The notes under the pieces are model-generated. The model searched no databases, was not told the DNA's origin, and saw nothing but the letters and a program-made list of their open reading frames with translations. From Methanobacteriota archaeon (lineage in GTDB: Archaea; JAADCQ01; Methanopyri; Methanopyrales; Methanopyraceae), in contig JAMOPO010000026.1 of the NCBI GenBank assembly GCA_027064425.1, forward strand, positions 1 to 45,941: DNA of 45,941 nt. The letters are read 5' to 3'. The first letter of the stretch is position 1. The number at the start of each line of letters is the position of its first letter. The translations under genes and the position numbers were made by a program. Below, piece after piece: positions 601-32,281 of this stretch.

Positions 601-749
601 CCGGCCGGGATCGCGCCCGACGGGTCCCGCGGTCCTCGGCGTCCTGTCGCTCGGGTGCACGTTCGGGTGCGCCGGTGTGGTGCGTGTGCGGCCGGTCGTG
701 GTTGGCGAAGGGTTTTTAGTCTCGGTGCGGTGGGTGCGTGGGTGGAGGC

Positions 750-839
750 GCGGGGGCGCCCGAGCCTGGTCAAAGGGGCGGGAATGAGGATCCCGTGGCC
801 GTAGGGCCGTCCCGGGTTCAAATCCCGGCCCCCGCACCA
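750..839 (+). tRNA. tRNA-Leu(GAG), class II, genomically encoded CCA, C at position 8
   Basis: Acceptor GCGGGGG/CCCCCGC, D arm CCC...GGG, anticodon stem CGGGA/TCCCG with loop ATGAGGA (anticodon GAG 786-788), long variable arm, T arm CCGGG-TTCAAAT-CCCGG, ACCA end. TATA-like TTTTTAG about 30 bp upstream. Confidence 0.97.
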
Positions 840-843
840 GCGG

Positions 844-870
844 GAATCGTTATGGGTCTCGTAACGTTTG
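844..870. repeat. 27-bp palindromic motif, copy 3 (GAATCGTTATG-GGTCT-CGTAACGTTTG)
   Basis: Begins 4 bp after the tRNA CCA end, between the convergent tRNA and vhuD genes. Confidence 0.8.
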
Positions 871-885
871 TGGGTCGGCGGATCC

Positions 886-917
886 GCCCGGGGGTCCCGT
901 TCGGGTTCCCCCCGGGC
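886..917 (-). promoter_or_regulatory. archaeal SECIS element in the 3' UTR of vhuD/mvhD
   Basis: Minus strand GCCCGGGGG-GAA-CCC-GAAC-GGG-A-CCCCCGGGC: GC stem, GAA/A internal loop and three C-G pairs with an apical loop, about 18 nt after the stop codon of a gene with in-frame UGA codons. Confidence 0.92.
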
Positions 918-935
918 CTCATCCCGCCGGTGCGT

Positions 936-1340
936 TTACTCCTGGAAGGGTGGGCCGAGTTCTTCGGCCCGTTTGTGCATTTCTTTGGCGGCTTTGACGA
1001 ACTTGTCGGCGTCGGCGGAGCTCATGAAGTACATCTCGACGCGCTCGGGCTCTAGGCCCATGGCTTCGAGGAGCTTCTTGGTGGCCTGGACGCGGCGTTC
1101 GCACTTGAGGTTGCCGTCCTCGTAGTTGCACTCTCCCTTCTTTCACCCGGCGATGAAGACGGTCCAGGCGCCTCTGGCGAGGGCGGTGAGGATGTGTTCG
1201 ATGCCGATGCGGCCGGTGCAGGGTACTCGGACGATTCTGACGCTGGTGGGGTACTGCATGCGGCTGGTGCCGGCGAGGTCGGCGGCGCCGTAGCCTCACT
1301 CGTAGCAGCAGAAGGCGACGACGATGGGTTCTTCTGCCAT
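936..1340 (-). CDS. mvhD: F420-non-reducing hydrogenase iron-sulfur subunit D (VhuD/MvhD), selenoprotein with Sec15 and Sec66
   Basis: Manual translation: [46 protein letters not shown]...FIAG-U-KKGECNYEDGNLKCERRV...LGPPFQE* (134 aa). In-frame TGA at 1296-1298 and 1143-1145 sit at conserved Cys positions; SECIS downstream; GGGTGA RBS upstream. Confidence 0.95.
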
Positions 1341-1417
1341 GGTGATCACCCGTGCGGGCGCTGGTGGGCTTTGGCTTAAATGGCTTGTCATCGGGGGGTT
1401 CGATCGGGGTGTCGAGC

Positions 1418-2704
1418 GTGGGTCGGGTGGTGTTGGAGGGGGTTCGGGAGGTGTCGGGTGAGGTCTCGCCGCCGCCGTCGAAGAGTGGGTCGCATCGGGC
1501 GTTGTTGGCGGCGGCGTTGTGTGAGGGGGAGACGGTGCTGAGGAACGTGTTGGAGGCGGATGATGTGCGGGCGACGGTGGGTCTGTGTCGGGCGTTGGGT
1601 GCGGGTGTGGGGGTGGAGGGTGAGGGTCGGTGGGTGGTGCGGGTGTCGGGGTTCGGTTGTGAGCCTGGGGTGCCGGGTGATGTGGTGGATTGTGGGAACT
1701 CGGGGACGACGTTGCGGTTGGGGTGTGGTGTGGCGGGGTTGGTGGAGGGTCGGGTGGTGTTGACGGGTGATGAGTCGTTGCGGTCGCGGCCGGTGGGGGA
1801 CTTGTTGGCGGCGCTGCGGTCGTTGGGGGTGGAGGCGTGGGGTCGGGTGCGGGAGGGTGAGGAGTTCCCGCCGGTGGTGGTGTCGGGGCGGCCGTTTCGG
1901 GATCGGGTGGCGGTGTACGGGCGGGTGAGCTCGCAGTTCGTGAGCGCGCTGTTGTTCTTGGGGGCGGGGTTGGGGGAGCTGCGGGTGGATGTGGTGGGTG
2001 GGCTGCGGTCGCGGCCGTACGTGGACTTGACGGTGGAGGTGTTGGAGGCGTTCGGGGTGTCGGTGGGGCGGGAGGGGTCGTCGTTCGTGGTGGAGGGTCG
2101 GCCGGAGTCGCCGGGGGAGTTTCGGGTGGAGAATGACTGGAGCTCGGCGGGCTACTTCGTGGCGTTGGGGGCGATCGGTGGGAAGGTGTGGGTGCGTGGG
2201 GTGGATCTGGACTCGTCGCATCCGGACCGGCGGATCGTGGAGATTGTGGAGGAGATGGGGGCGGTGGTGCGGGAGCGTGGTGATGGTGTGGTGGTGCGGT
2301 CGTCGGGGTCGTTGGAGGGGGTGGAGGTGGATCTGTCGGACGCGCCGGATCTGGTGCCGACGGTGGCGGCGTTGGGGTGCTTCGCGGAGGGTGTGACGCG
2401 GATCGTGAACGTGGGTCACGTGCGGTTCAAGGAGGTGGATCGGCTGCGGGCGTTGGCGGAGGAGCTGCCGCGGTTCGGGGTGGAGGTGCGGGAGGGGCGG
2501 GACTGGTTGGAGGTGAGGGGTGGTGAGCCGGTGGGGGCGCGGGTGAGCTCGCGGGGTGATCATCGGATGGCGATGGCGTTGGCGGTGGTGGGTGCGTTCG
2601 CGCGGGGTGAGACGGTGATCGAGGGTGCGGACGCGGTGTCGGTCTCGTACCCGGGGTTCTGGGAGGATCTGGCGTCGGTGGGGGTGCGGGTGCGGTCGGG
2701 GTAG
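1418..2704 (+). CDS. aroA: 3-phosphoshikimate 1-carboxyvinyltransferase (EPSP synthase)
   Basis: PPSKSGSHRAL, DCGNSGTTLR, SSQFVSALL, RFKEVDRL and GDHRMAM motifs; GTG start chosen from the GGGGTG RBS. Confidence 0.96.
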   Translation: MGRVVLEGVREVSGEVSPPPSKSGSHRALLAAALCEGETVLRNVLEADDVRATVGLCRALGAGVGVEGEGRWVVRVSGFGCEPGVPGDVVDCGNSGTTLRLGCGVAGLVEGRVVLTGDESLRSRPVGDLLAALRSLGVEAWGRVREGEEFPPVVVSGRPFRDRVAVYGRVSSQFVSALLFLGAGLGELRVDVVGGLRSRPYVDLTVEVLEAFGVSVGREGSSFVVEGRPESPGEFRVENDWSSAGYFVALGAIGGKVWVRGVDLDSSHPDRRIVEIVEEMGAVVRERGDGVVVRSSGSLEGVEVDLSDAPDLVPTVAALGCFAEGVTRIVNVGHVRFKEVDRLRALAEELPRFGVEVREGRDWLEVRGGEPVGARVSSRGDHRMAMALAVVGAFARGETVIEGADAVSVSYPGFWEDLASVGVRVRSG

Positions 2705-2766
2705 GCCGGCGGGCCCGGCGCCTGGGGTATTTAAGCGCGGTGGGCGGGTTCGGGGCGGGGTGCTCG

Positions 2767-3945
2767 TTGAACACGCTGGGTCGGTGGTTCCGGGTCACGA
2801 CGTGGGGTGAGTCGCACGGTCGGGCGCTCGGTGCGGTGGTGGATGGGTGTCCGGCGGGGCTGCCGCTCTCGGAGGAGGATGTGCAGCGGGAGCTGGATCG
2901 GCGGCGCCCGGGTCAGTCTTCGGTCTCGACGCCGCGGTCGGAGCGGGATCGGGTGGAGTTCCTGTCGGGCGTGTACGAGGGTCGTACGCTCGGGACGCCG
3001 ATCAGCATGGTCGTGTGGAACGAGGACGTGGACTCGTCCAGGTACGAGCCGGTTAAGACGCGGCCGCGGCCGGGGCACGCGGACCTGACGTACCGGTGGA
3101 AGTACGGGCACGTGGATTGGCGGGGCGGTGGTCGGGCGTCGGGTCGGACGACGGTGGGTGTGGTGATGGGTGGGGCGGTGGCGCGGAAGCTGCTGCGGGA
3201 GGCGCCGCTGGAGGATCCGTTGGGGATCGAGATCGCGGGTCACGTGGTGCGGGTGGGCTCGGTGGAGGTGGGTGAGGTGGGGGAGCTCTCCGCGTCGGAG
3301 ATCCGGCGGCGGGCGGAGTCGAACCCGGTGAGGTGCGTGGACGGGTCGGTGGCGGAGGAGATGGTGGAGGAGATCGAGCGGGCGCGGGAGGAGGGGGATT
3401 CGGTGGGTGGGACGGTGGAGGTGGTGGCGGAGAACGTTCCGCCGGGGTTGGGTGACCCGGTGTTCGGGCGGTTGGACGGGGAGCTGGCGGGGGCGTTGAT
3501 GAGCATTCCGGCGGTGAAGGCGGTGGAGGTCGGGTCGGGCGTGGAGTGCTCGGGCATGCGGGGCTCGGAGCACAACGATCCGATCGTGTGGCGGGAGGGG
3601 CGGCCGGTGGTGGACGGTGATCGGTGCGGTGGGGTGCTGGGTGGGATCTCGTGCGGTGGTCGGCTGGTGGTGCGGGTGCACGTGAAGCCGACGCCGTCGG
3701 TCTCGGTCCCGCAGCGGACGGTGGATCTGGCCTCGGGGGAGGAGGTGGAGCTGTCGGTGGAGGGCCGGCACGACCCGTGCATCTGCCCGCGGGTGGTGCC
3801 GGTGGTCGAGGCGGTGGTGGCGATCGTGCTGGCGGACGCGGTCCTGCGGGCGGGGTACGTGAACCCGGATAGCGTGGAGCTGCCGGCGGCGTCGGTGGAG
3901 GACCGGTGGGAGGTGCTGCGGCGGAATCTGCCGTCGGAGGAGTGA
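2767..3945 (+). CDS. aroC: chorismate synthase
   Basis: TTWGESHG, RPRPGHAD, GGGRASGRTT, GGISCG and GRHDPC motifs; TTG start. Confidence 0.97.
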   Translation: MNTLGRWFRVTTWGESHGRALGAVVDGCPAGLPLSEEDVQRELDRRRPGQSSVSTPRSERDRVEFLSGVYEGRTLGTPISMVVWNEDVDSSRYEPVKTRPRPGHADLTYRWKYGHVDWRGGGRASGRTTVGVVMGGAVARKLLREAPLEDPLGIEIAGHVVRVGSVEVGEVGELSASEIRRRAESNPVRCVDGSVAEEMVEEIERAREEGDSVGGTVEVVAENVPPGLGDPVFGRLDGELAGALMSIPAVKAVEVGSGVECSGMRGSEHNDPIVWREGRPVVDGDRCGGVLGGISCGGRLVVRVHVKPTPSVSVPQRTVDLASGEEVELSVEGRHDPCICPRVVPVVEAVVAIVLADAVLRAGYVNPDSVELPAASVEDRWEVLRRNLPSEE

Positions 3946-9868: not shown

Positions 9869-9947
9869 CCCCACCGGTGCGGAGCGGCCGCCCGAGACCG
9901 GTGCAGCTTTAACCGGTTAACTTTCCGGTTGCAAGGGGGTGCCTCCG

Positions 9948-11174
9948 TTGGGCAAGAAGGGCGGCAAGGATGACGAGCGTCACGATGACCACCACGACCA
10001 CCACGAGCGGGAGGACGACCAACCGGGCGACGACCACCACGGCGACCACGGTCAGGACCCGCAGCGGGACCACCCGGAACAGGATCTAGAGCATGACCTC
10101 CGAGACCTCGGCTCCCACAACGATCACGGGCACGATCACGACCACGGGCACGACCACGGCGAGCCCCAGCTCGACCTCGACTCGGACCACGACTCGAAGG
10201 CCGACCAGCCCGACGACGCCTCGGCCGGTCTGCCCGAGGACCCGTTCCGGGACCACGGTCGGGATCACGGCGAGGACCACGACCGGGCCCTCCACGACGC
10301 GTCGTCGGCGGGCGGGGACGACCACGGGTCTGGAGGCGACCCGGGCGACTGGCTGGACGAGCAGCTCAAGAGGTCGGGCTCGGCCGGCGACTCGTCCGGC
10401 GGTCCCGACGTGGGCTCGGACCTGCTCCAAAAGTCCGGGACCGAGGCCTCATCGTCCGGTGGAGGCTCCGGCGGGGACTCGGGGGGCGGAGACTCGGGCG
10501 GGGACGTGACGCCGGAGCCGGACGGCTCCGAGCCGCCGGAGATCGACGTGGACTGGACGAAGATCAACGTGTCCCAGGACGTCTCCGACACCGACGTGGA
10601 CATCACCAGCGTCAACGTCAGCGACAACGACGTGGACGTGGACGCCGACAGCTCGGTGAGCGTGGAGGACAACGACGTGAACGTGGTCGACTCGGACGTG
10701 AGCATCGACGCGGACGGGCCCATCGAGCTGGGTCCCAGCGACGACCCGTACCTCGTGATCGACCCGAGCGACGGGGTGCTGGAGATCAACGTGTTCGATG
10801 ACCCGATCTCGATCTCGGTCGGTGACACGGTGATCAACCAGCTGATCAGCGTCGTGAGCTGGCTGGAGGTACGGGTCGACTCCGGCGCCCTGCCCGAGGG
10901 TGTGGACCCGAGCAGCCTGCTGGACCTACTGTACCGGCTGCTGGCCTACCTGCTCGGCGTCTTCCACGAGGTCGCCCCGCTAAGCGCCATCATCGGCCTG
11001 TTCCAGCGGATCGCCGCCTACGTGCTCGAGGGAAGCCTCACGGTGTCCGTGGTGGAGCAGATCCTCCAGGTCCTGCAGACGGCGACCAGCCCGCTCACCG
11101 CCGCCCTGCAGCTGAAGACGATCCTAGCCGATGCGGGGATCTCGCTGGGCAGCCTCCTCGGCGGCCTCCTCTAA
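9948..11174 (+). CDS. orphan His/Asp-rich acidic protein
   Basis: Open frame of about 408 aa after a GGGGGTG RBS (TTG start). HD-rich N-terminus, Gly/Ser linker, V/D/S/N alternating segment, hydrophobic helical C-terminus. Confidence 0.75.
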   Translation: MGKKGGKDDERHDDHHDHHEREDDQPGDDHHGDHGQDPQRDHPEQDLEHDLRDLGSHNDHGHDHDHGHDHGEPQLDLDSDHDSKADQPDDASAGLPEDPFRDHGRDHGEDHDRALHDASSAGGDDHGSGGDPGDWLDEQLKRSGSAGDSSGGPDVGSDLLQKSGTEASSSGGGSGGDSGGGDSGGDVTPEPDGSEPPEIDVDWTKINVSQDVSDTDVDITSVNVSDNDVDVDADSSVSVEDNDVNVVDSDVSIDADGPIELGPSDDPYLVIDPSDGVLEINVFDDPISISVGDTVINQLISVVSWLEVRVDSGALPEGVDPSSLLDLLYRLLAYLLGVFHEVAPLSAIIGLFQRIAAYVLEGSLTVSVVEQILQVLQTATSPLTAALQLKTILADAGISLGSLLGGLL

Positions 11175-11182
11175 CCCGCCCC

Positions 11183-11247
11183 GCGATGATCGGACTGAGC
11201 TATGGCGAGCGCCGCCGGCGCGATGAGCGAGGACACGGGGGTGAGCG
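11183..11247 (+). ncRNA. candidate box C/D sRNA (tRNA D-arm guide)
   Basis: C GCGAUGA, guide UCGGACUGAGCUAUG, D' GCGA, GC hairpin, C' GCGAUGA, 14-nt guide, D GUGA. Boxes are degenerate. Confidence 0.5.
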
Positions 11248-11250
11248 CGT

Positions 11251-11271
11251 CTAACGTAAACGAAACGAAAA
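11251..11271 (-). terminator. U-rich terminator-like tract downstream of the 11308-11874 gene
   Basis: Minus strand reads TTTTCGTTTCGTTTACGTTAG, a rare T-rich run in this GC-rich DNA. Confidence 0.4.
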
Positions 11272-11307
11272 GCCCGGGGAGCGCACCTCCGACCCTCCCA
11301 GCCCCGC

Positions 11308-11874
11308 CTACCTCCCGTACCACCGCTCGCGCAGCCTCAAGGACAGGTACGGGCGCCAGCGCCCGAGCACACGGCCCAGCTTCCTCCTCAACCGTCCCGG
11401 CAGCTCCGACAGCACGTCCTCCAGCCCCTCCCGCGACTCCTCGAACTTCTCCCCGAACAGCAGCGCATCCTCCACGCGCAGCGCGATCGAGAACGCGAGC
11501 CCCGACGCCGACTCCTTCAGCCCCTCCTCCACCACCTCGCGCACGACGGACCGCACGGCCGACACGACCCGGCCGATCAACCGCCGGAACTCCGACTCCG
11601 AGAGCCCACGCAGCCACCGCACGAACTCGATCGCCCACTCGTTCCGGCCGAGGTAGATCGTCCGACCCCGATTGAACCGGGAGTCCCTCCTCCAACGGGC
11701 CACGTAGTACGGCCCGTACTTCTTCTTCCGACCGTTCACGCGGCGGACCCGGTACGTCCTCTCAAGGCTCGGCGGCTTGCCCCGCCGCGCGCACTCCAGC
11801 AGGATCTTCGTCAGCCGGACCTTCTCCTCGGGCTCCGGCGGGAAGAACATCCGACCCGGGTCGAACCTGGGCAC
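11308..11874 (-). CDS. basic orphan protein with KYGPYYVARWRR...GRTIYLG motif (recalled as Methanopyrus-specific DUF1678-like); start GTG 11874 or ATG 11850
   Basis: Arg/Lys-rich N-terminal half and helical C-terminal half; TTTAAA elements upstream at about 11877 and 11958. Confidence 0.75.
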   Translation of the reverse strand: MPRFDPGRMFFPPEPEEKVRLTKILLECARRGKPPSLERTYRVRRVNGRKKKYGPYYVARWRRDSRFNRGRTIYLGRNEWAIEFVRWLRGLSESEFRRLIGRVVSAVRSVVREVVEEGLKESASGLAFSIALRVEDALLFGEKFEESREGLEDVLSELPGRLRRKLGRVLGRWRPYLSLRLRERWYGR

Positions 11875-11989
11875 GCTTTAAACCCCCGGACCGGTCCGTC
11901 CCCCCACGCGGCCCCACATAACGCTTGCCCTCACCCCCCACACAACGTCCGGCCCGATTTAAAAAGCCCGATGCGACTTCGACAAGAGC

Positions 11990-12296
11990 ATCTATGCATA
12001 ATCCATGCATTGAGGTCGCTGGATCGTGCGTAATCGCTCATACCCACGACGCAACCTGGGCCCCTTAACCGTGCATTTGCTGACCACTGCCTACCGACTA
12101 TCTATGCATTATCTACGTATCATCCGTGCATCCAGGCCCGGCCCCGCACAACCGCCGGCCGCGGCCCCGGGTCCGGGGTAATACTGTATGCGCATGATCT
12201 ACGTACTAACCTTCCAGGACCATGCGTAGATCGTACCTCCGCAGGGCGCACTGCATGCGCACTATCATCGCGTGCTGTACGAACGATCCGTGCAAT
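11990..12296. repeat. AT-rich array of ATCYRYGYAT repeats with 11-bp tandem period
   Basis: Copies at 11990, 12001, 12067 (variant), 12100, 12111, 12122, 12197 and 12286, plus an inverted copy at 12222-12231. Confidence 0.8.
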
Positions 12297-12334
12297 CCGG
12301 GAATTTATTAAGCGGGCCGGGGGCTCCGACACGG

Positions 12335-12399
12335 GGGCGGATGAGCGGGCTGAACTCGGCCGAGGGTCTCGATGAGGAGGGGACCACGGGGCGACGCCC
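12335..12399 (+). ncRNA. candidate box C/D sRNA
   Basis: Terminal stem GGGCG/CGCCC enclosing C GGAUGA, guide, D' CCGA, C' CGAUGA, guide, D GCGA; TATA-like ATTTATTAA at 12303-12311. Confidence 0.55.
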
Positions 12400-12411
12400 G
12401 CGGTAACCCGT

Positions 12412-12479
12412 CGGGATGATGATCGCTCCCGATACGGTTTCCCGCAGACTGGTGACGAGTGCGGGACCCATCTGACCCG
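12412..12479 (+). ncRNA. candidate box C/D sRNA
   Basis: Terminal stem CGGG/CCCG; canonical C AUGAUGA (12416-12422), D' CAGA, C' GUGACGA, 13-nt guide, canonical D CUGA (12472-12475). Confidence 0.75.
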
Positions 12480-12511
12480 GGGGGTTCCCCCTGCTCCCGC
12501 TCCCGCTCCTG

Positions 12512-13858
12512 GTGCTTCTTTGCCCGGCCCCGGCCGCCGCCGACGTGACCGTGGACGTGGTTCCCTACGTTGACAGCGACGCGTGGTCGAAGGAGCACGT
12601 GAAGGCGCTGGAGGACTTCCTGCGGTGGTGCGAGGAGCGCGGGATCAGGGCCGCGATCTTCCACTACAACCTCTGCGAGCGCACGGCGCCCGGGATCACC
12701 GAGGTGATCCGAGGGTTCGCGGACCGGGGCGTGCTCACGGTCGTCGGCCTGCACTCCGCCTCGCACGCGATGGGCGGGCTGCCGCTCGCGATCCAGTACT
12801 GGGAGCTCGCGGTGAACCGCGACTTTCTGGAAAAGAAAGTGGGCCGCGCGGACCCCGTGCTCTCGGTCCCGTACTGGGTCCTGGACGTGAACACGCTGCG
12901 GGCGTGCGCGATGGCGGGCGTCCGGATCCTCGTGGACGGGAACGACCCGGCGGGGATGGGGCCGGAGCCGGGCGAGTGGTCGTCGATTCCGGGGCTATCG
13001 CGGCGGCTGGTCGTGGGCCGGTGGGACGTGGACGGGGTGCGGCTGTACCGGCTGCCCGCGGTGGCGTGGTCGGACCTTTGGGAGGAGGGGTCGACGGTGG
13101 ACGAGGCCTGCAGGCGGCTTCAGCGGGCGGTGTCGGGGTTGGTGGACGGGGGCTGGTGCCGGGAGGGTCGGGTGACGGTGTGGGTCCTGGTGCACCCGTG
13201 GGAGCTGGCGCGGCGGGAGTTCCTGCGGTCGTTTGAGGAGTTCCTGGACCGGGTCCGGTCGGGGAGGCTGGACTTCGAGCACGGCGGCGTCCGGGTGCGG
13301 TTCCGGCTGGCGGACCCGAGGGAGGTGGTGGAGCGGGTGGAGGAGTACGTGGCGCGCCCGCTGCCGAGGCCGGACCTGCCGTGGATCCTGCGGGCGGAGG
13401 GGTTCCCGGATCCCGGGCGGCTGCGGGCGGAGCTGCTGAAGGAGGCGTCGGAGGGGAGGGAGGACGCGGTGAGGGGGCTGCGGGTGCTGGAGATTTGGGA
13501 GCGGTGCATGCAGATCCTGTGGGGTGTAGACGGCGAGCTGCTGGCGCTGACGCGGGCCGGGAAGGTCACCCGTAGGCTCCGGGAGCTGGTTGAGAAGGTG
13601 GTCTCAGTGATCTGGAACGACGTGGGCGTGTACTCGGCGATCCGGGAGTGGAGGGACCTCGACGCGGCCCTGACGTTCGCGCGGCGGATGCTCGCGGACG
13701 TGATGGAGCTGGCGGGGGCCGTCGAGTCGGCCTACGCGGAGTTGGTGGCGTCATCCGGGAGGAAAGGTGGGCGGCGCCCCGTGGCCGCCGTTCCGACCCC
13801 GATTCCTCGCCCGCGGTCAGGAGAGGACGAGGAGGGCGGCGACGACCTGTCCGAGTGA
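12512..13858 (+). CDS. probable secreted polysaccharide deacetylase-like (NodB/CE4) protein; true start may be CTG at 12491
   Basis: Signal-peptide-like LLVLLCPAPAAA; VGLHSASH (HxxxH), SVPYW and VLVHPWE motifs; Pro/Arg-rich tail; 3' end overlaps hypF by 42 bp. Confidence 0.7.
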   Translation: MLLCPAPAAADVTVDVVPYVDSDAWSKEHVKALEDFLRWCEERGIRAAIFHYNLCERTAPGITEVIRGFADRGVLTVVGLHSASHAMGGLPLAIQYWELAVNRDFLEKKVGRADPVLSVPYWVLDVNTLRACAMAGVRILVDGNDPAGMGPEPGEWSSIPGLSRRLVVGRWDVDGVRLYRLPAVAWSDLWEEGSTVDEACRRLQRAVSGLVDGGWCREGRVTVWVLVHPWELARREFLRSFEEFLDRVRSGRLDFEHGGVRVRFRLADPREVVERVEEYVARPLPRPDLPWILRAEGFPDPGRLRAELLKEASEGREDAVRGLRVLEIWERCMQILWGVDGELLALTRAGKVTRRLRELVEKVVSVIWNDVGVYSAIREWRDLDAALTFARRMLADVMELAGAVESAYAELVASSGRKGGRRPVAAVPTPIPRPRSGEDEEGGDDLSE

Positions 13859-28881: not shown

Positions 28882-30135
28882 CTAACGCCCCCACAGCCCC
28901 CTCTTTTTCGCCTCCTCCAGCACCTCCCGCGCGTACCTGACCACGTACGGATTCTCGTCCGAGAAGCGCCCCTCGTACCGCCGCAGCGTCTCCTCAATCT
29001 TCTCCCAGCACTCGTCCGGCACCCGACCCGTCGTCGCGTCCCAGCCCAGCAGGTTCTTCACCCGCTTCAGCCACTCCGACGCGCCCTTCGCCCCGTGCTC
29101 CAGCATCGCCTCGACCCACTCCTCGTTCGCCAGCTTCTGATCCACCAACCGCCGGAGCTCGTCCTCCAGCGATCGCGTGATCACCCGGTTCGGATCCGTC
29201 ACATCGTGATGATAGCACTCCACCCGCTCGCCCGAGAGCTCCTCCGCCGCCGCGACCATCCCACCGTGGAACGCGAAGTGGCAGCAGCAGCTGAGGATGT
29301 CCCACTCGTGCGAGGACTGCGAGATCGAGACCGCCCGCACGTTGGACAGCGCCCGCTCGAACTCCTCGAAGGCCTCCTCACCGAACGCCTCCCGACCGTA
29401 GGCGTACCCGCCCCACCGCACGTACACCCGCGCCAGGTCCGACCGGCCCTCCCACGCGGACGCGTGCACGGCGTAGTTCACGCCGGCCCCGTACGCCCCG
29501 GGCGGGTCCCCGAAGACGCGGTGACCGCCCCCGTGCCGCTTCACGAAGTTCTCCTCCTCCGACTCGTCCCGGTCCCGAACCAGCTCGAACGCCTCATCGA
29601 GCAGCTCGATCAGGTTCGGGAACGCGTCCCGGAACATCCCGCTGATCCGGACCACCACGTCCACCCTCGGCCGACCCAGCTCCTCGACCGGGACCACCTC
29701 CAGCCCCCGGACCACGCCCGACTCGTCCCACCGGGGTCGCACGCCCAGCAGCCACAGGACCTGCGCCAGCACCTCACCGCCCGTCCGCATCACGTCCGAC
29801 GCCCAGAGCACGACCCCCACCGCGCGCGGGTACTCGCCCCGCTCCTCCCGGTACCGCTCCAGCGTCTTCTCCGCGAGCCGGCGCCCCACCCGCCAGGCCC
29901 GCCGGGTCGGCACCTTCCTCGGGTCCACCGAGTAGAAGTTCTTGCCCGTGGGGAGCACGTCCACGTCGCCTCGCGTGGGGTTGCCCGAGGGGCCCGGCTC
30001 GACGAACTCACCCTCGAGCGCCCTCACCGTGACCTCCAGCTCCCGCTCGCACGCGAGCAGTCGGCGGAGCACCGACCGCGCGAACTCCCGGGCCTCCTCC
30101 GTCACCGCCTCCCGCACGCGCTCCTTAAGACTCAA
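28882..30135 (-). CDS. CobN/ChlH-family chelatase, C-terminal portion
   Basis: LEGEFVEPGPSGNPTRG, VLPTGKNFYSVDP, LGRPRVDVVVRISGMFRDAFP, YGAGV; TTG start after a GGGGT RBS. Confidence 0.9.
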   Translation of the reverse strand: MSLKERVREAVTEEAREFARSVLRRLLACERELEVTVRALEGEFVEPGPSGNPTRGDVDVLPTGKNFYSVDPRKVPTRRAWRVGRRLAEKTLERYREERGEYPRAVGVVLWASDVMRTGGEVLAQVLWLLGVRPRWDESGVVRGLEVVPVEELGRPRVDVVVRISGMFRDAFPNLIELLDEAFELVRDRDESEEENFVKRHGGGHRVFGDPPGAYGAGVNYAVHASAWEGRSDLARVYVRWGGYAYGREAFGEEAFEEFERALSNVRAVSISQSSHEWDILSCCCHFAFHGGMVAAAEELSGERVECYHHDVTDPNRVITRSLEDELRRLVDQKLANEEWVEAMLEHGAKGASEWLKRVKNLLGWDATTGRVPDECWEKIEETLRRYEGRFSDENPYVVRYAREVLEEAKKRGLWGR

Positions 30136-30208
30136 ACCGGACCCCGCCCGCACACCGTACCACGAAACGTTACTAAGGTAACACCGGATAAGCCTTGAGG
30201 GGATCAGC

Positions 30209-32281
30209 GTGCGGGTCCTCTGCGTGTGCTCGAGCACCATCGTGAGAGCCGCCCGGCGCGTCGCCGAGCGCCTCCCCTTCGACCTCGAGGTCGCGACCCA
30301 GGACGACGCGCCCGGGTCCGGGAGCTACGACCTGATCGTCCTGCTCCGCGTCACCCAGCCCGTCGTCCCGGACGAGGACGCGGAGGTGGTGGCCGTCCCC
30401 CTCGACGGCTCCACCGGGGTCCAGACCCTGAACACCGTGCCCGACCGAGTCGTCGATCGCGTGCGCGAGTACGTCGAGCACGGTGGAGAGCGGAACCTGG
30501 AGCACGCCCTCCGCTACCTGGCGAGCGAGGTGCTCGGCCTGGACCTGGAGTACGAGCCCCCGGAGGAGCGACCGTGGGACGGTCTGTACCACCCGGACCG
30601 CGGCCTGCTGGAGGAGGCGCCCGAGCCCTCCGACCGGGAGACGATCGGGGTCTACCTCAGCCGGGAGATGTGGGTCTGGGGCTGCACCGACGTCCCCGAT
30701 CGGCTGATCCGGGAGGTCGAGCGCGCGGGCGGCCGGGCCCTGGGCGTGTTCACCAAGCCGGGCCGCGGGCGCCCGCTGGACGAGCTCCTCACGGTGGACG
30801 GTGAGCCGGTCGTGGACGCCCTGCTGGTCGTCAAGAAGCCCTCCTTCAAGCGGGGGTACGAGCGGGGCTTTGAGGCGCTCCGGCGGCTCGGCGTTCCCGT
30901 GATCAACGCGGTGATCTCCTGGTACCGAACCCGGGAGGAGTGGCGCGAGTCGGAGCAGGGGTTGAGCCCGGGCGACCTGGCGTACGGGGTCGCGATGGGC
31001 GAGCTTCAGGGCCGGGTCGATCCGATCCCGGTCGGGTTCAGGGCCGAGGGCGGGGGCTACGAGCCGGAGCCCGGGCGGTGCCGGCTGGCGGCTCGGCGGG
31101 CGCTGCGCTGGGCCCGGCTGCGCCGGAAGCCGCCGGAGGAGCGCCGGGTGGCGATCGTCCTGAACAACGGGATCTGCTCCCGGGGCGAGGCCGGGATCGG
31201 CGCGGCGATGGGGCTGGACACGTTCGAGAGCTTGGCCCGGCTGCTCCGGCGGCTGCGAGAGGAGGGGTACCGGCTGGACTGGGTGCCGGAGGATGGTCGG
31301 GAGCTGGAGCGGGAGTTCTTCCGGAGGAAGGCGTTCAACGAGTTCAAGAGCACGACCGTGGAGGACATCCTGGCCTCGGGTGGCGCGGTGGACCTGGTCC
31401 CGCTGGACCGGTACCTGGAGTGGTTCGAGGAGCTGCCGGAGGAGCTGCAGGAGCGGATGGTGGAGGAGTGGGGCGAGCCGCCCGGGGACGCGATGGTGGT
31501 GGACGACTGCATTGTAATCGCGGGGATCCGGACGGGCAACGTGTTCCTCGGCGTGCAGCCGAAGCGGGGGTGCGCCGGGACGGATTGTAGCGGCGAGGTC
31601 TGCAGGATCCTGCACGACCCGCACTGCCCGCCGACGCACCATTACTACGCCTTCTACCGGTGGATCCGGGACGAGTTCCGGGCGGACGTGCTCCTGCACG
31701 CGGGCACGCACGGCACGCACGAGTGGCTGCCGGGGAAGTCGGTGGGGCTGTCCGAGACCTGCTGGCCGGAGGTCTGCATCGGCGACCTGCCGGTCGTGTA
31801 CTGGTACATCGTGAGCAACCCGTCCGAGGGCACGCAGGCGAAGCGCCGCGGGTACTCGACGCTCGTGGACCACTGCCCGCCGCCGCTGGGCGGGACGGAG
31901 GCGGGCGTGGAGGAGGTGGAGGAGCGGCTGGACGAGGCGCAGCGGTCGGGCGAGGTGGACCCGCGCCTGTTCGAGGAGTGGGAGGCGAGGGCGGGTGCGT
32001 TCATCGAGAAGGGGCTGCACGTGATCGGGGAGCCGCCGCGAGATCCCGAGCGGCTCGCGGAGTTCCTGTACGCGCTCTGCCGGAACCGGCTCCGGGAGCT
32101 GATCGCCCGGGAGCTGGGCGTGGACCTCGAGGAGGTGCTGGAGCGGCCCGGGGAGGAGAACGAGGAGCTGGGGGTCGCGAACCGGGAGCTCGCCCGGGTC
32201 ATCGATGAGGTGGTTCGAGAGGTGTGTGAGGAGGTGGTGGCGGAGGAGCTCGGGTCCGAAAGGGATAACCCGCGGGAGTGA
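30209..32281 (+). CDS. CobN/ChlH-family chelatase, N-terminal portion
   Basis: RRVAIVLNN, GLDTFES, GNVFLGVQPKRG, HDPHCPPTHHY, HAGTHGTHEWLPGK, EGTQAKRRG, GLHVIG. Confidence 0.9.
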   Translation: MRVLCVCSSTIVRAARRVAERLPFDLEVATQDDAPGSGSYDLIVLLRVTQPVVPDEDAEVVAVPLDGSTGVQTLNTVPDRVVDRVREYVEHGGERNLEHALRYLASEVLGLDLEYEPPEERPWDGLYHPDRGLLEEAPEPSDRETIGVYLSREMWVWGCTDVPDRLIREVERAGGRALGVFTKPGRGRPLDELLTVDGEPVVDALLVVKKPSFKRGYERGFEALRRLGVPVINAVISWYRTREEWRESEQGLSPGDLAYGVAMGELQGRVDPIPVGFRAEGGGYEPEPGRCRLAARRALRWARLRRKPPEERRVAIVLNNGICSRGEAGIGAAMGLDTFESLARLLRRLREEGYRLDWVPEDGRELEREFFRRKAFNEFKSTTVEDILASGGAVDLVPLDRYLEWFEELPEELQERMVEEWGEPPGDAMVVDDCIVIAGIRTGNVFLGVQPKRGCAGTDCSGEVCRILHDPHCPPTHHYYAFYRWIRDEFRADVLLHAGTHGTHEWLPGKSVGLSETCWPEVCIGDLPVVYWYIVSNPSEGTQAKRRGYSTLVDHCPPPLGGTEAGVEEVEERLDEAQRSGEVDPRLFEEWEARAGAFIEKGLHVIGEPPRDPERLAEFLYALCRNRLRELIARELGVDLEEVLERPGEENEELGVANRELARVIDEVVREVCEEVVAEELGSERDNPRE

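Follow-up and report, generated by a model that had tools for sequence, protein, structure and literature searches.

An 11-bp iteron array beside C/D-box sRNA genes in Methanopyrus, a possible docking site for a DNA-binding protein

Introduction

The partition site parC of plasmid R1, part of a type II partition system, consists of direct 11-bp iterons arranged by a promoter in two tandem clusters on one helical face. The iterons are bound by the ParR protein, and arrays of heptad repeats are bound by the omega protein. At archaeal chromosomal origins (oriC), ORB and mini-ORB repeats are located next to orc1/cdc6 and are inverted around an unwinding element. To our knowledge, absence of an Orc1/Cdc6 initiator has been reported for two archaeal orders, the Methanopyrales and the Methanococcales, and we know of neither a defined replication origin nor a defined centromere in Methanopyrus, a genus for which we also know of no genetic tools. 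Three studies record that the Methanopyrales lack Cdc6/Orc1 and that origin prediction in the group is inconclusive (Raymann 2014, PMC3914693; Berthon 2008, PMC2643942; Yu 2017, PMC5504354), and a fast-evolving Orc1/Cdc6 homologue in class I methanogens is mentioned in an arCOG paper (PMC4390880).

Here we describe an array of 11-bp words in an intergenic gap of a Methanopyrus chromosome. The window, by which we mean the whole 45,941-bp stretch of DNA that was analysed, is contig C26 of a draft genome (G000; 57 contigs, 1.54 Mb). It opens at its 5' end with the 3' end of an archaeal 23S rRNA gene and a tRNA-Leu gene, encodes methanogen genes further on (the mcr operon, for example) and has ~69% G+C, the figure for G000 being 68%. 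Five genomes of the same genus were used for comparison (G001 to G005), among them one complete genome (G001), the closest relative of the window's own genome (G005) and three genomes that are 87-94% complete (G003-G005).

The array resembles parC in having direct 11-bp units, with one run of two and one of three spaced at exactly 11 bp, beside putative promoters. It differs from parC, however, in being chromosomal, in having tandem runs of only two and three units together with single sites, one inverted unit and an internal G+C-rich spacer, and in having no ParM-like ATPase or ribbon-helix-helix gene next to it. Tandem, phased direct repeats by the gene for a small basic protein are also a feature of iteron plasmid replicons and omega/heptad operators, although no Rep family match lies beside the array. 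Pfam searches of the neighbouring ORFs returned DUF1678, Dph6 and HypF, and no partition ATPase, ribbon-helix-helix or Rep gene. The likeness to an archaeal ORB origin lies in the array being a unique intergenic cluster of short repeats that is AT-rich in relatives, in a genus with no defined origin; the array words are, however, arranged in tandem at 11 bp, unlike the inverted ORB repeats, and no initiator gene was detected. The 17-nt inverted repeat around the array invites comparison with a MITE; there is one copy in G000 and there are two in G002.

We found no description of the array in the literature searched; a palindrome that is reported downstream of M. kandleri tRNA genes (PMC5217627) is a different element. 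What is new here is the orthologous, sharper-worded copy in a G+C-rich species, the synteny of the locus, its pattern of presence and absence within the genus and a negative skew test.

The array and its words

The array lies in a gap of 637 bp (11875-12511) between the DUF1678 gene on the minus strand and a 448-amino acid ORF on the plus strand (12512-13858). Nine copies of the 11-bp word ATCYRYGYAWN, eight of them direct and one inverted, are present at 11990-12296, and a single weight matrix fits them all (Table 1). Every word listed in the first-pass annotation, which was made from the letters of the window, is found in its place.

Table 1 Features of the array locus (positions in the window)
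Feature	Position	Strand	Remarks
Acidic, His/Asp-rich 411-amino acid ORF	9939..11174	+	No Pfam family
DUF1678 gene	11308..11874	-	Pfam E = 1.1e-33; 5' end faces the array
Left arm of inverted repeat: G+C clamp and TATA-like box TTTAAAAA	11949..11965	.	17 nt, 82% complementary
Tandem iteron pair ATCTATGCATA, ATCCATGCATT	11990..12011	+	~25 bp right of the left TATA-like box
Lone iteron AACCGTGCATT	12067..12077	+	Exact 11-bp register with the pair, offset 77
Tandem iteron triple ATCTATGCATT, ATCTACGTATC, ATCCGTGCATC	12100..12132	+	
G+C-rich spacer, 44 bp (4 x 11), with overlapping palindromes	12133..12176	.	Divides the strictly phased left half from the right
Iteron ATCTACGTACT	12197..12207	+	Register -2
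Sole inverted iteron, ATCTACGCATG on the minus strand	12221..12231	-	
Iteron ATCCGTGCAAT	12286..12296	+	Register -1; 8 bp upstream of the right TATA-like box
Right arm of inverted repeat: TTTATTAA and G+C clamp	12304..12320	.	17 nt; same inverted repeat as 11949..11965
Two tandem C/D-box sRNA genes, homologues of M. kandleri C/D box sRNA 50 and 51	12335..12480	+	

The word is concentrated in the array to a degree that base composition does not reproduce. The form ATCYRYGYAT has six matches in the window, every one of them inside 11990-12231, whilst dinucleotide shuffles of the whole window give a mean of 0.40 and a maximum of 2 (0/100 reach six) and shuffles of the gap alone or of the array alone give means of 0.026 and 0.043 (0/2000 reach six in either case). 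The proposal that motif density here would exceed that of shuffled sequence is thus borne out, with six matches against 0.03-0.4 expected and with six of the nine matches in the 1.54-Mb draft falling in the array, the sole cluster of such words in that genome. When the weight matrix is used with a uniform background and an 11-bit threshold, it finds nine sites in the array and none elsewhere in the window. At 14 bits or more it finds 12 sites in the whole of G000, nine of them in the array, a count that is circular for those nine because the matrix was built from them. In keeping with the remark at the outset that the array is not CRISPR-like, the units either abut at 11 bp or stand singly, and neither repeat lengths nor spacings are those of a CRISPR array. 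Nor is this a coding repeat, since 11 is not a multiple of 3.

In the complete genome G001, the homologous element is the only non-coding cluster with at least three sites inside 300 bp. A further cluster of motif matches at 694,134-694,422 of that genome was set aside: by eye, it lies inside a Cys-rich coding region of ferredoxin type, and it can therefore be put down to chance matches arising from Cys codons.

Register and periodicity

The sites at 11990, 12001, 12067, 12100, 12111 and 12122 share one exact 11-bp register, and the starts of the tandem clusters lie 110 bp apart, just as first noted. At period 11 the phase resultant is 0.90 (Monte Carlo P ~0.011), whereas for periods 10 to 12 it stays at 0.21-0.51, and the top self-similarity lag of the array is likewise 11 (z = 4.6). 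Ranked by lag-11 excess, the array region comes first among the 30,457 300-bp windows of G000 and the G001 element comes second among 28,426. The remaining top-ranking lag-11 windows of G000 (C3 100.5 kb, C15 429 kb and C5 15.6 kb) contain no related words by eye.

The left and right halves of the array differ in this respect. The information held in period-11 columns has z = 9.1 in the left half (11990-12132) against 1.4 in the right half (12177-12297), where the direct sites at 12197 and 12286 are out of strict register (Table 1). Among periods 9-13, period 11 scores highest in the left half, but period 13 outscores it both in the right half (z = 1.4) and in the array taken whole (z = 1.3). 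Strict 11-bp register thus extends over the left half but not the right.

Copies in the relatives, described below, are periodic in the same way. Lag 11 is the top lag in all four copies examined (z = 4.6 for the window, 4.2 and 3.6 for the two G002 copies and 2.6 for G001). Period-11 column information reaches z = 5.8 and 4.6 in the G002 copies and 7.4 in the G001 copy, over ~20 rows, with 11 again the best period between 9 and 13 in all three.

The locus in related species

When the gap was compared with the five other genus genomes by BLAST, it matched only at its right end (12335-12510) and in one 21-nt piece of the array. The latter, ATCTACGTATC-ATCCGTGCATC, is the best-conserved piece of the array, with 95% identity over 21 nt to G001, and G002 too has a tandem word pair at 11-bp spacing. 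Both G002 and G001 carry an AT-rich element of ~300 bp, located ~450-600 bp upstream of the sRNA genes, that is built from the same words and includes the tandem pair at 11-bp spacing. The order of features is common to G000, G002 and G001: Dph6, the acidic ORF, the element, sRNA 50/51, HypF, a 374-amino acid gene and a radical-SAM gene. The element locus is orthologous across these three Methanopyrus species. That position and periodicity have both been kept whilst the sequence drifted beyond the reach of BLAST argues for selection.

There are differences between the copies. The window copy is richer in G+C than the copies in G002 and G001, has fewer but far sharper words (nine strong sites) and is split by a G+C-rich spacer; it is located between a divergent gene and the sRNA genes, whereas in G002 and G001 the element is flanked by convergent gene ends. 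The acidic ORF ends just upstream of the element in all of G000, G001 and G002. The N-terminal half of its product is extremely acidic and rich in His and Asp, and its C-terminus is a conserved hydrophobic domain of ~130 amino acids; the last 126 amino acids share 44% identity with the ORF whose end immediately precedes the G002 element, and there is a homologue ahead of the G001 element as well. With this ORF as the query, no match was found in G003-G005. A small gene adjoins the element in G002 (L044 1078-1290, minus strand) and likewise in G001, its product having by eye a pilin-like N-terminus resembling a class III signal peptide; no counterpart was seen in the window between the array and the sRNA genes.

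A search for the tandem pair, with one mismatch allowed, found, besides the orthologous elements, only a second G002 copy (at 85.8 kb) and one small additional site in G001. The pattern was matched in none of the three further genomes G003-G005, which are 87-94% complete, and the reversed-pattern control also gave none. In the closest relative, G005, a syntenic contig shows Dph6 abutting the sRNA genes, with ~2.46 kb absent that corresponds to ~9870-12330 of the window and takes in the acidic ORF, the DUF1678 gene and the array. The second G002 copy (L041 4790-5095) has an ABCE1/RLI-type gene on one side and a metallophosphoesterase gene on the other, each ending toward it. By eye on alignment A1 the two G002 copies look near-identical; they have sharp boundaries and stand in unrelated contexts. 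No element is present at the syntenic site in G000 (C27 1-1700), and the second copy in G002 has the appearance of a ~310-bp sequence that was inserted recently. We take the element to be an accessory chromosomal feature found in part of the genus, and not an essential one.

These observations also bear on a different reading, in which the array is the relic or cargo of a mobile or duplicating non-coding cassette of ~300-370 bp, bounded by A/T-rich boxes and copied to new sites, with the repeats being former binding sites of a recombinase or transposase that have no present function for the host. Such a history would account for the paired G002 copies in their unrelated settings, for the small second site in G001, for the 17-nt inverted repeat that brackets the window array and for the ~2.46-kb difference from G005, and the neighbouring DUF1678 family is an expanded one, with nine matches in G000 and 16 in G002. 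G000, however, holds a single copy, the position and periodicity of the element are kept across deeply diverged species, and the DUF1678 paralogues have no transposon-like ends, their common part being the gene plus ~80 bp upstream. We consider a mobile origin of this kind very unlikely.

A possible docking site for a DNA-binding protein

We favour, tentatively, the reading that the array is an iteron lattice, quite possibly the docking site of a sequence-specific DNA-binding protein that would bind cooperatively on one face of the helix. A cooperative lattice on one face is suggested by analogy with parC, because the word is unique in the genome, is repeated head-to-tail at one helical turn and keeps its register whilst the sequence around it drifts. 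This is the best supported of the readings considered here, and within it we infer the binding, its cooperativity, the promoters and the binder itself. In such a scheme each 11-bp word would be one binding unit; tandem units and a common register would bring all of the units onto one helix face, where neighbouring protein units could touch and bind cooperatively, and the outcome would be a continuous nucleoprotein structure like that of ParR on parC iterons or of omega on heptad arrays.

The array is bracketed by two TATA-like boxes, one in each arm of the 17-nt inverted repeat. The right box lies ~27 bp upstream of 12335, where conservation of the sRNA block starts, and may be the promoter of the sRNA 50/51 homologues. 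By symmetry with it, the left box would fire outward and leftward, and by eye it could be a promoter for the DUF1678 gene, the likely start of which is an ATG at 11850, ~29 bp from a TTTAAA box at 11877-11882. If both assignments are right, occupancy of the lattice in G000 would also set transcription of DUF1678 on the left and of sRNA 50/51 on the right. Such an operator role cannot be general, however, since the elements of G002 and G001 are located between convergent gene ends.

The first-pass annotation had proposed a cooperative protein-binding site or a site of DNA wrapping or unwinding. Binding is favoured by the unique, phased word and by the periodicity kept in two further species. 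Origin-like unwinding is not: at 57% G+C in a genome of 68%, the array is only moderately enriched in A+T, falling in the lowest 1% of windows though not at the minimum, it contains a 44-bp G+C-rich spacer, and the G001 element coincides with no turning point of skew or gene orientation.

The array offers a concrete bait for a sequence-specific DNA-binding protein in Methanopyrus. Should it prove to be a local control element only, a multi-site operator of this one-face kind would still be unusual for a hyperthermophile, and it would give a first functional handle on DUF1678.

Is the array a replication origin?

The array might instead be a chromosomal origin, with its words acting as boxes for a lineage-specific initiator that has replaced the Orc1/Cdc6-ORB system and with the AT-rich body seen in relatives acting as the unwinding element. 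The idea is attractive because the element is unique per genome (one or two loci in each) and AT-rich in the relatives, whose copies have 34-38% G+C in genomes of ~58-61%. In G002 and G001, moreover, the element lies between convergent genes and hence is no promoter there, and none of the three genomes searched (G000, G001 and G002) has a protein that reaches the cut-off of the Orc1/Cdc6 model TIGR02928, the best matches being RFC and TIP49. A cluster of AAA+ matches near the start of G002 was rejected as an initiator locus, as it comprises RFC subunits and TIP49 rather than Orc1, and the adjoining spacer holds a small gene.

Several observations speak against an origin. The element is absent from the syntenic contig of G005 and is thus dispensable in one relative, and the tandem-pair pattern was found in none of the three genomes G003-G005, which are themselves incomplete. 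The second G002 copy has the look of an insertion, with an empty matching site in G000. In the window itself the array has a G+C-rich core, the genes upstream of it, the rRNA operon among them, are oriented toward it, and the 46 kb contain no replication genes, MCM and PolD being encoded on other contigs. In the complete genome G001, the cumulative GC, AT and purine skew curves form a broad plateau at 800-905 kb; the element, at 868 kb, falls within it, 110 kb away from the gene-orientation minimum at 757 kb. The skew evidence is mild only, because skew is weak in the genus (GC skew index 0.023; table in PMC2684130). The orientation minimum was itself considered as an origin and rejected: the 2-kb gap at 757 kb is a low-G+C coding stretch by genes for luciferase-like, CBS and RNA-ligase proteins. 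Taken as a whole, the tests made do not favour the origin reading, which gains nothing from them, and we regard it as unlikely.

sRNA genes and the possibility of an array RNA

The sRNA 50/51 homologues lie beside the array but outside it. They are conserved in four of the five genus relatives, with 87% identity to G005 and 77% to G002, and the G002 counterparts match the coordinates and sequences given for C/D box sRNA 50 and 51 in Table S1 of Su et al. 2013 (PMC3695527). Rfam, at gathering score, does not detect them. In four small-RNA runs of organism A, all from one study, the G002 counterparts are covered at a depth of 700-3700. On the G005 contig C120 (L043 ~1410-1480), words resembling a C box and a D box are visible by eye in the interval that runs from the Dph6 stop codon to the homologue of sRNA 50, and this stretch may be a third C/D sRNA gene.

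In another reading, the array is itself a non-coding RNA gene or a 3' UTR element, with repeats that act at the RNA level. Contigs assembled from the same four runs span the whole of the G002 element at a depth of 10-12, one of them has an A-tail end right after a conserved hairpin and T-run at the right edge of the element, the G002 copy folds with z = -3.9, and in the window a TATA-like box lies ~25 bp ahead of the first repeat. The contigs, however, begin within the upstream gene and have a depth ~100-300 times lower than that over the neighbouring sRNAs, a pattern that fits weak read-through. The window array folds no better than its shuffles (z = -1.35 and -0.11 on the two strands), and the G002 stems are broken, with no compensation, in the other two copies (alignment A1, by eye). 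In the searchable one of the two supplement files of Su et al. 2013 (PMC3695527), no sRNA is listed at either G002 element, and scans of the gap for Rfam families (gathering scores) and tRNAs gave no match. An RNA function of the repeats thus appears extremely unlikely. The stretch ~1107-1184 of the G002 sequence is uncovered in three of the runs, although contigs cannot show absence.

DUF1678 as a candidate reader

If the array is indeed a docking site, the DUF1678 protein is by position the first candidate for its reader. Among the 21 genomes searched, the family is confined to the genus, with matches in all six Methanopyrus genomes and in none of the other 15. In all three genomes that have the orthologous element, a DUF1678 gene lies with its 5' end toward it. 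The predicted N-terminal domain is a helix followed by three strands and a second helix (pLDDT 93) and carries an invariant GPY motif.

It is, however, a weak candidate. In G000 the DUF1678 gene is to the left of the array, divergent and 116 bp away, but in G002 and G001 it is to the right of the sRNA genes, at ~760 bp with other genes between, and belongs to another subfamily. No DUF1678 gene neighbours either the second G002 copy or the small additional site of G001. The word is not enriched at 30 other DUF1678 loci, with 0.051 sites per kb where the genome as a whole has 0.057, and no DNA-binding fold was matched. Against solved structures, the best Foldseek E-value for the N-terminal domain was 0.32 (dsRBD-type rows, with probability <0.5) and the best VIA Z-score was 4.4; for the whole protein the best values were 0.38 and 5.3, the latter on the helical tail. 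No Rep family passes its cut-off either, PF02486 reaching 13.6 bits (E = 0.051; cut-off 29.6 bits) on the N-terminal domain of one of 29 members. These differing subfamilies, sides and distances, the copies with no DUF1678 gene, the lack of word enrichment and the lack of a fold match are what make the protein weak as a binder. In the ESM Atlas, the N-terminal domain resembles DUF6788 (features 0.89, TM 0.52-0.55), which we note as a lead only. An excess at lag 11 of at least 0.10 is seen at two of the 30 other DUF1678 loci, where ~0.25 would be expected from the G001 rate, and is suggestive only.

A bolder extension of these ideas is that the array and a DUF1678-family reader form a replicator-initiator or centromere-adaptor pair specific to Methanopyrus, a lineage-specific replacement of Orc1/Cdc6-ORB. 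We think this distinctly unlikely; were it true, the spacing of 11 bp would suit a helix that is slightly unwound, as is expected near 100 degrees C.

Further observations

The DUF1678 paralogues share only the gene and ~80 bp upstream. At L017, L019 and other DUF1678 loci, this conserved upstream stretch is preceded by several short words resembling GTTACAA/TTGTAATC. L017 also includes, at 2150-2240 of the G000 contig C48 and ~330 bp upstream of a DUF1678 paralogue, a patch of ~60 bp with the related words TATGCAT and GTGCATC, which is the second most 11-bp-periodic window of the genome. In G002, TACG-rich and AT-rich stretches lie just downstream of two DUF1678 paralogues (L007 950-1342 and L072 1000-1478) and have a conserved end in common; one of them has a high lag-11 excess (0.106). 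Elsewhere in the window, a CobN/Mg-chelatase-type protein is encoded in two halves by separate ORFs that stand back to back on opposite strands (28882-30240, minus, and 30209-32281, plus).
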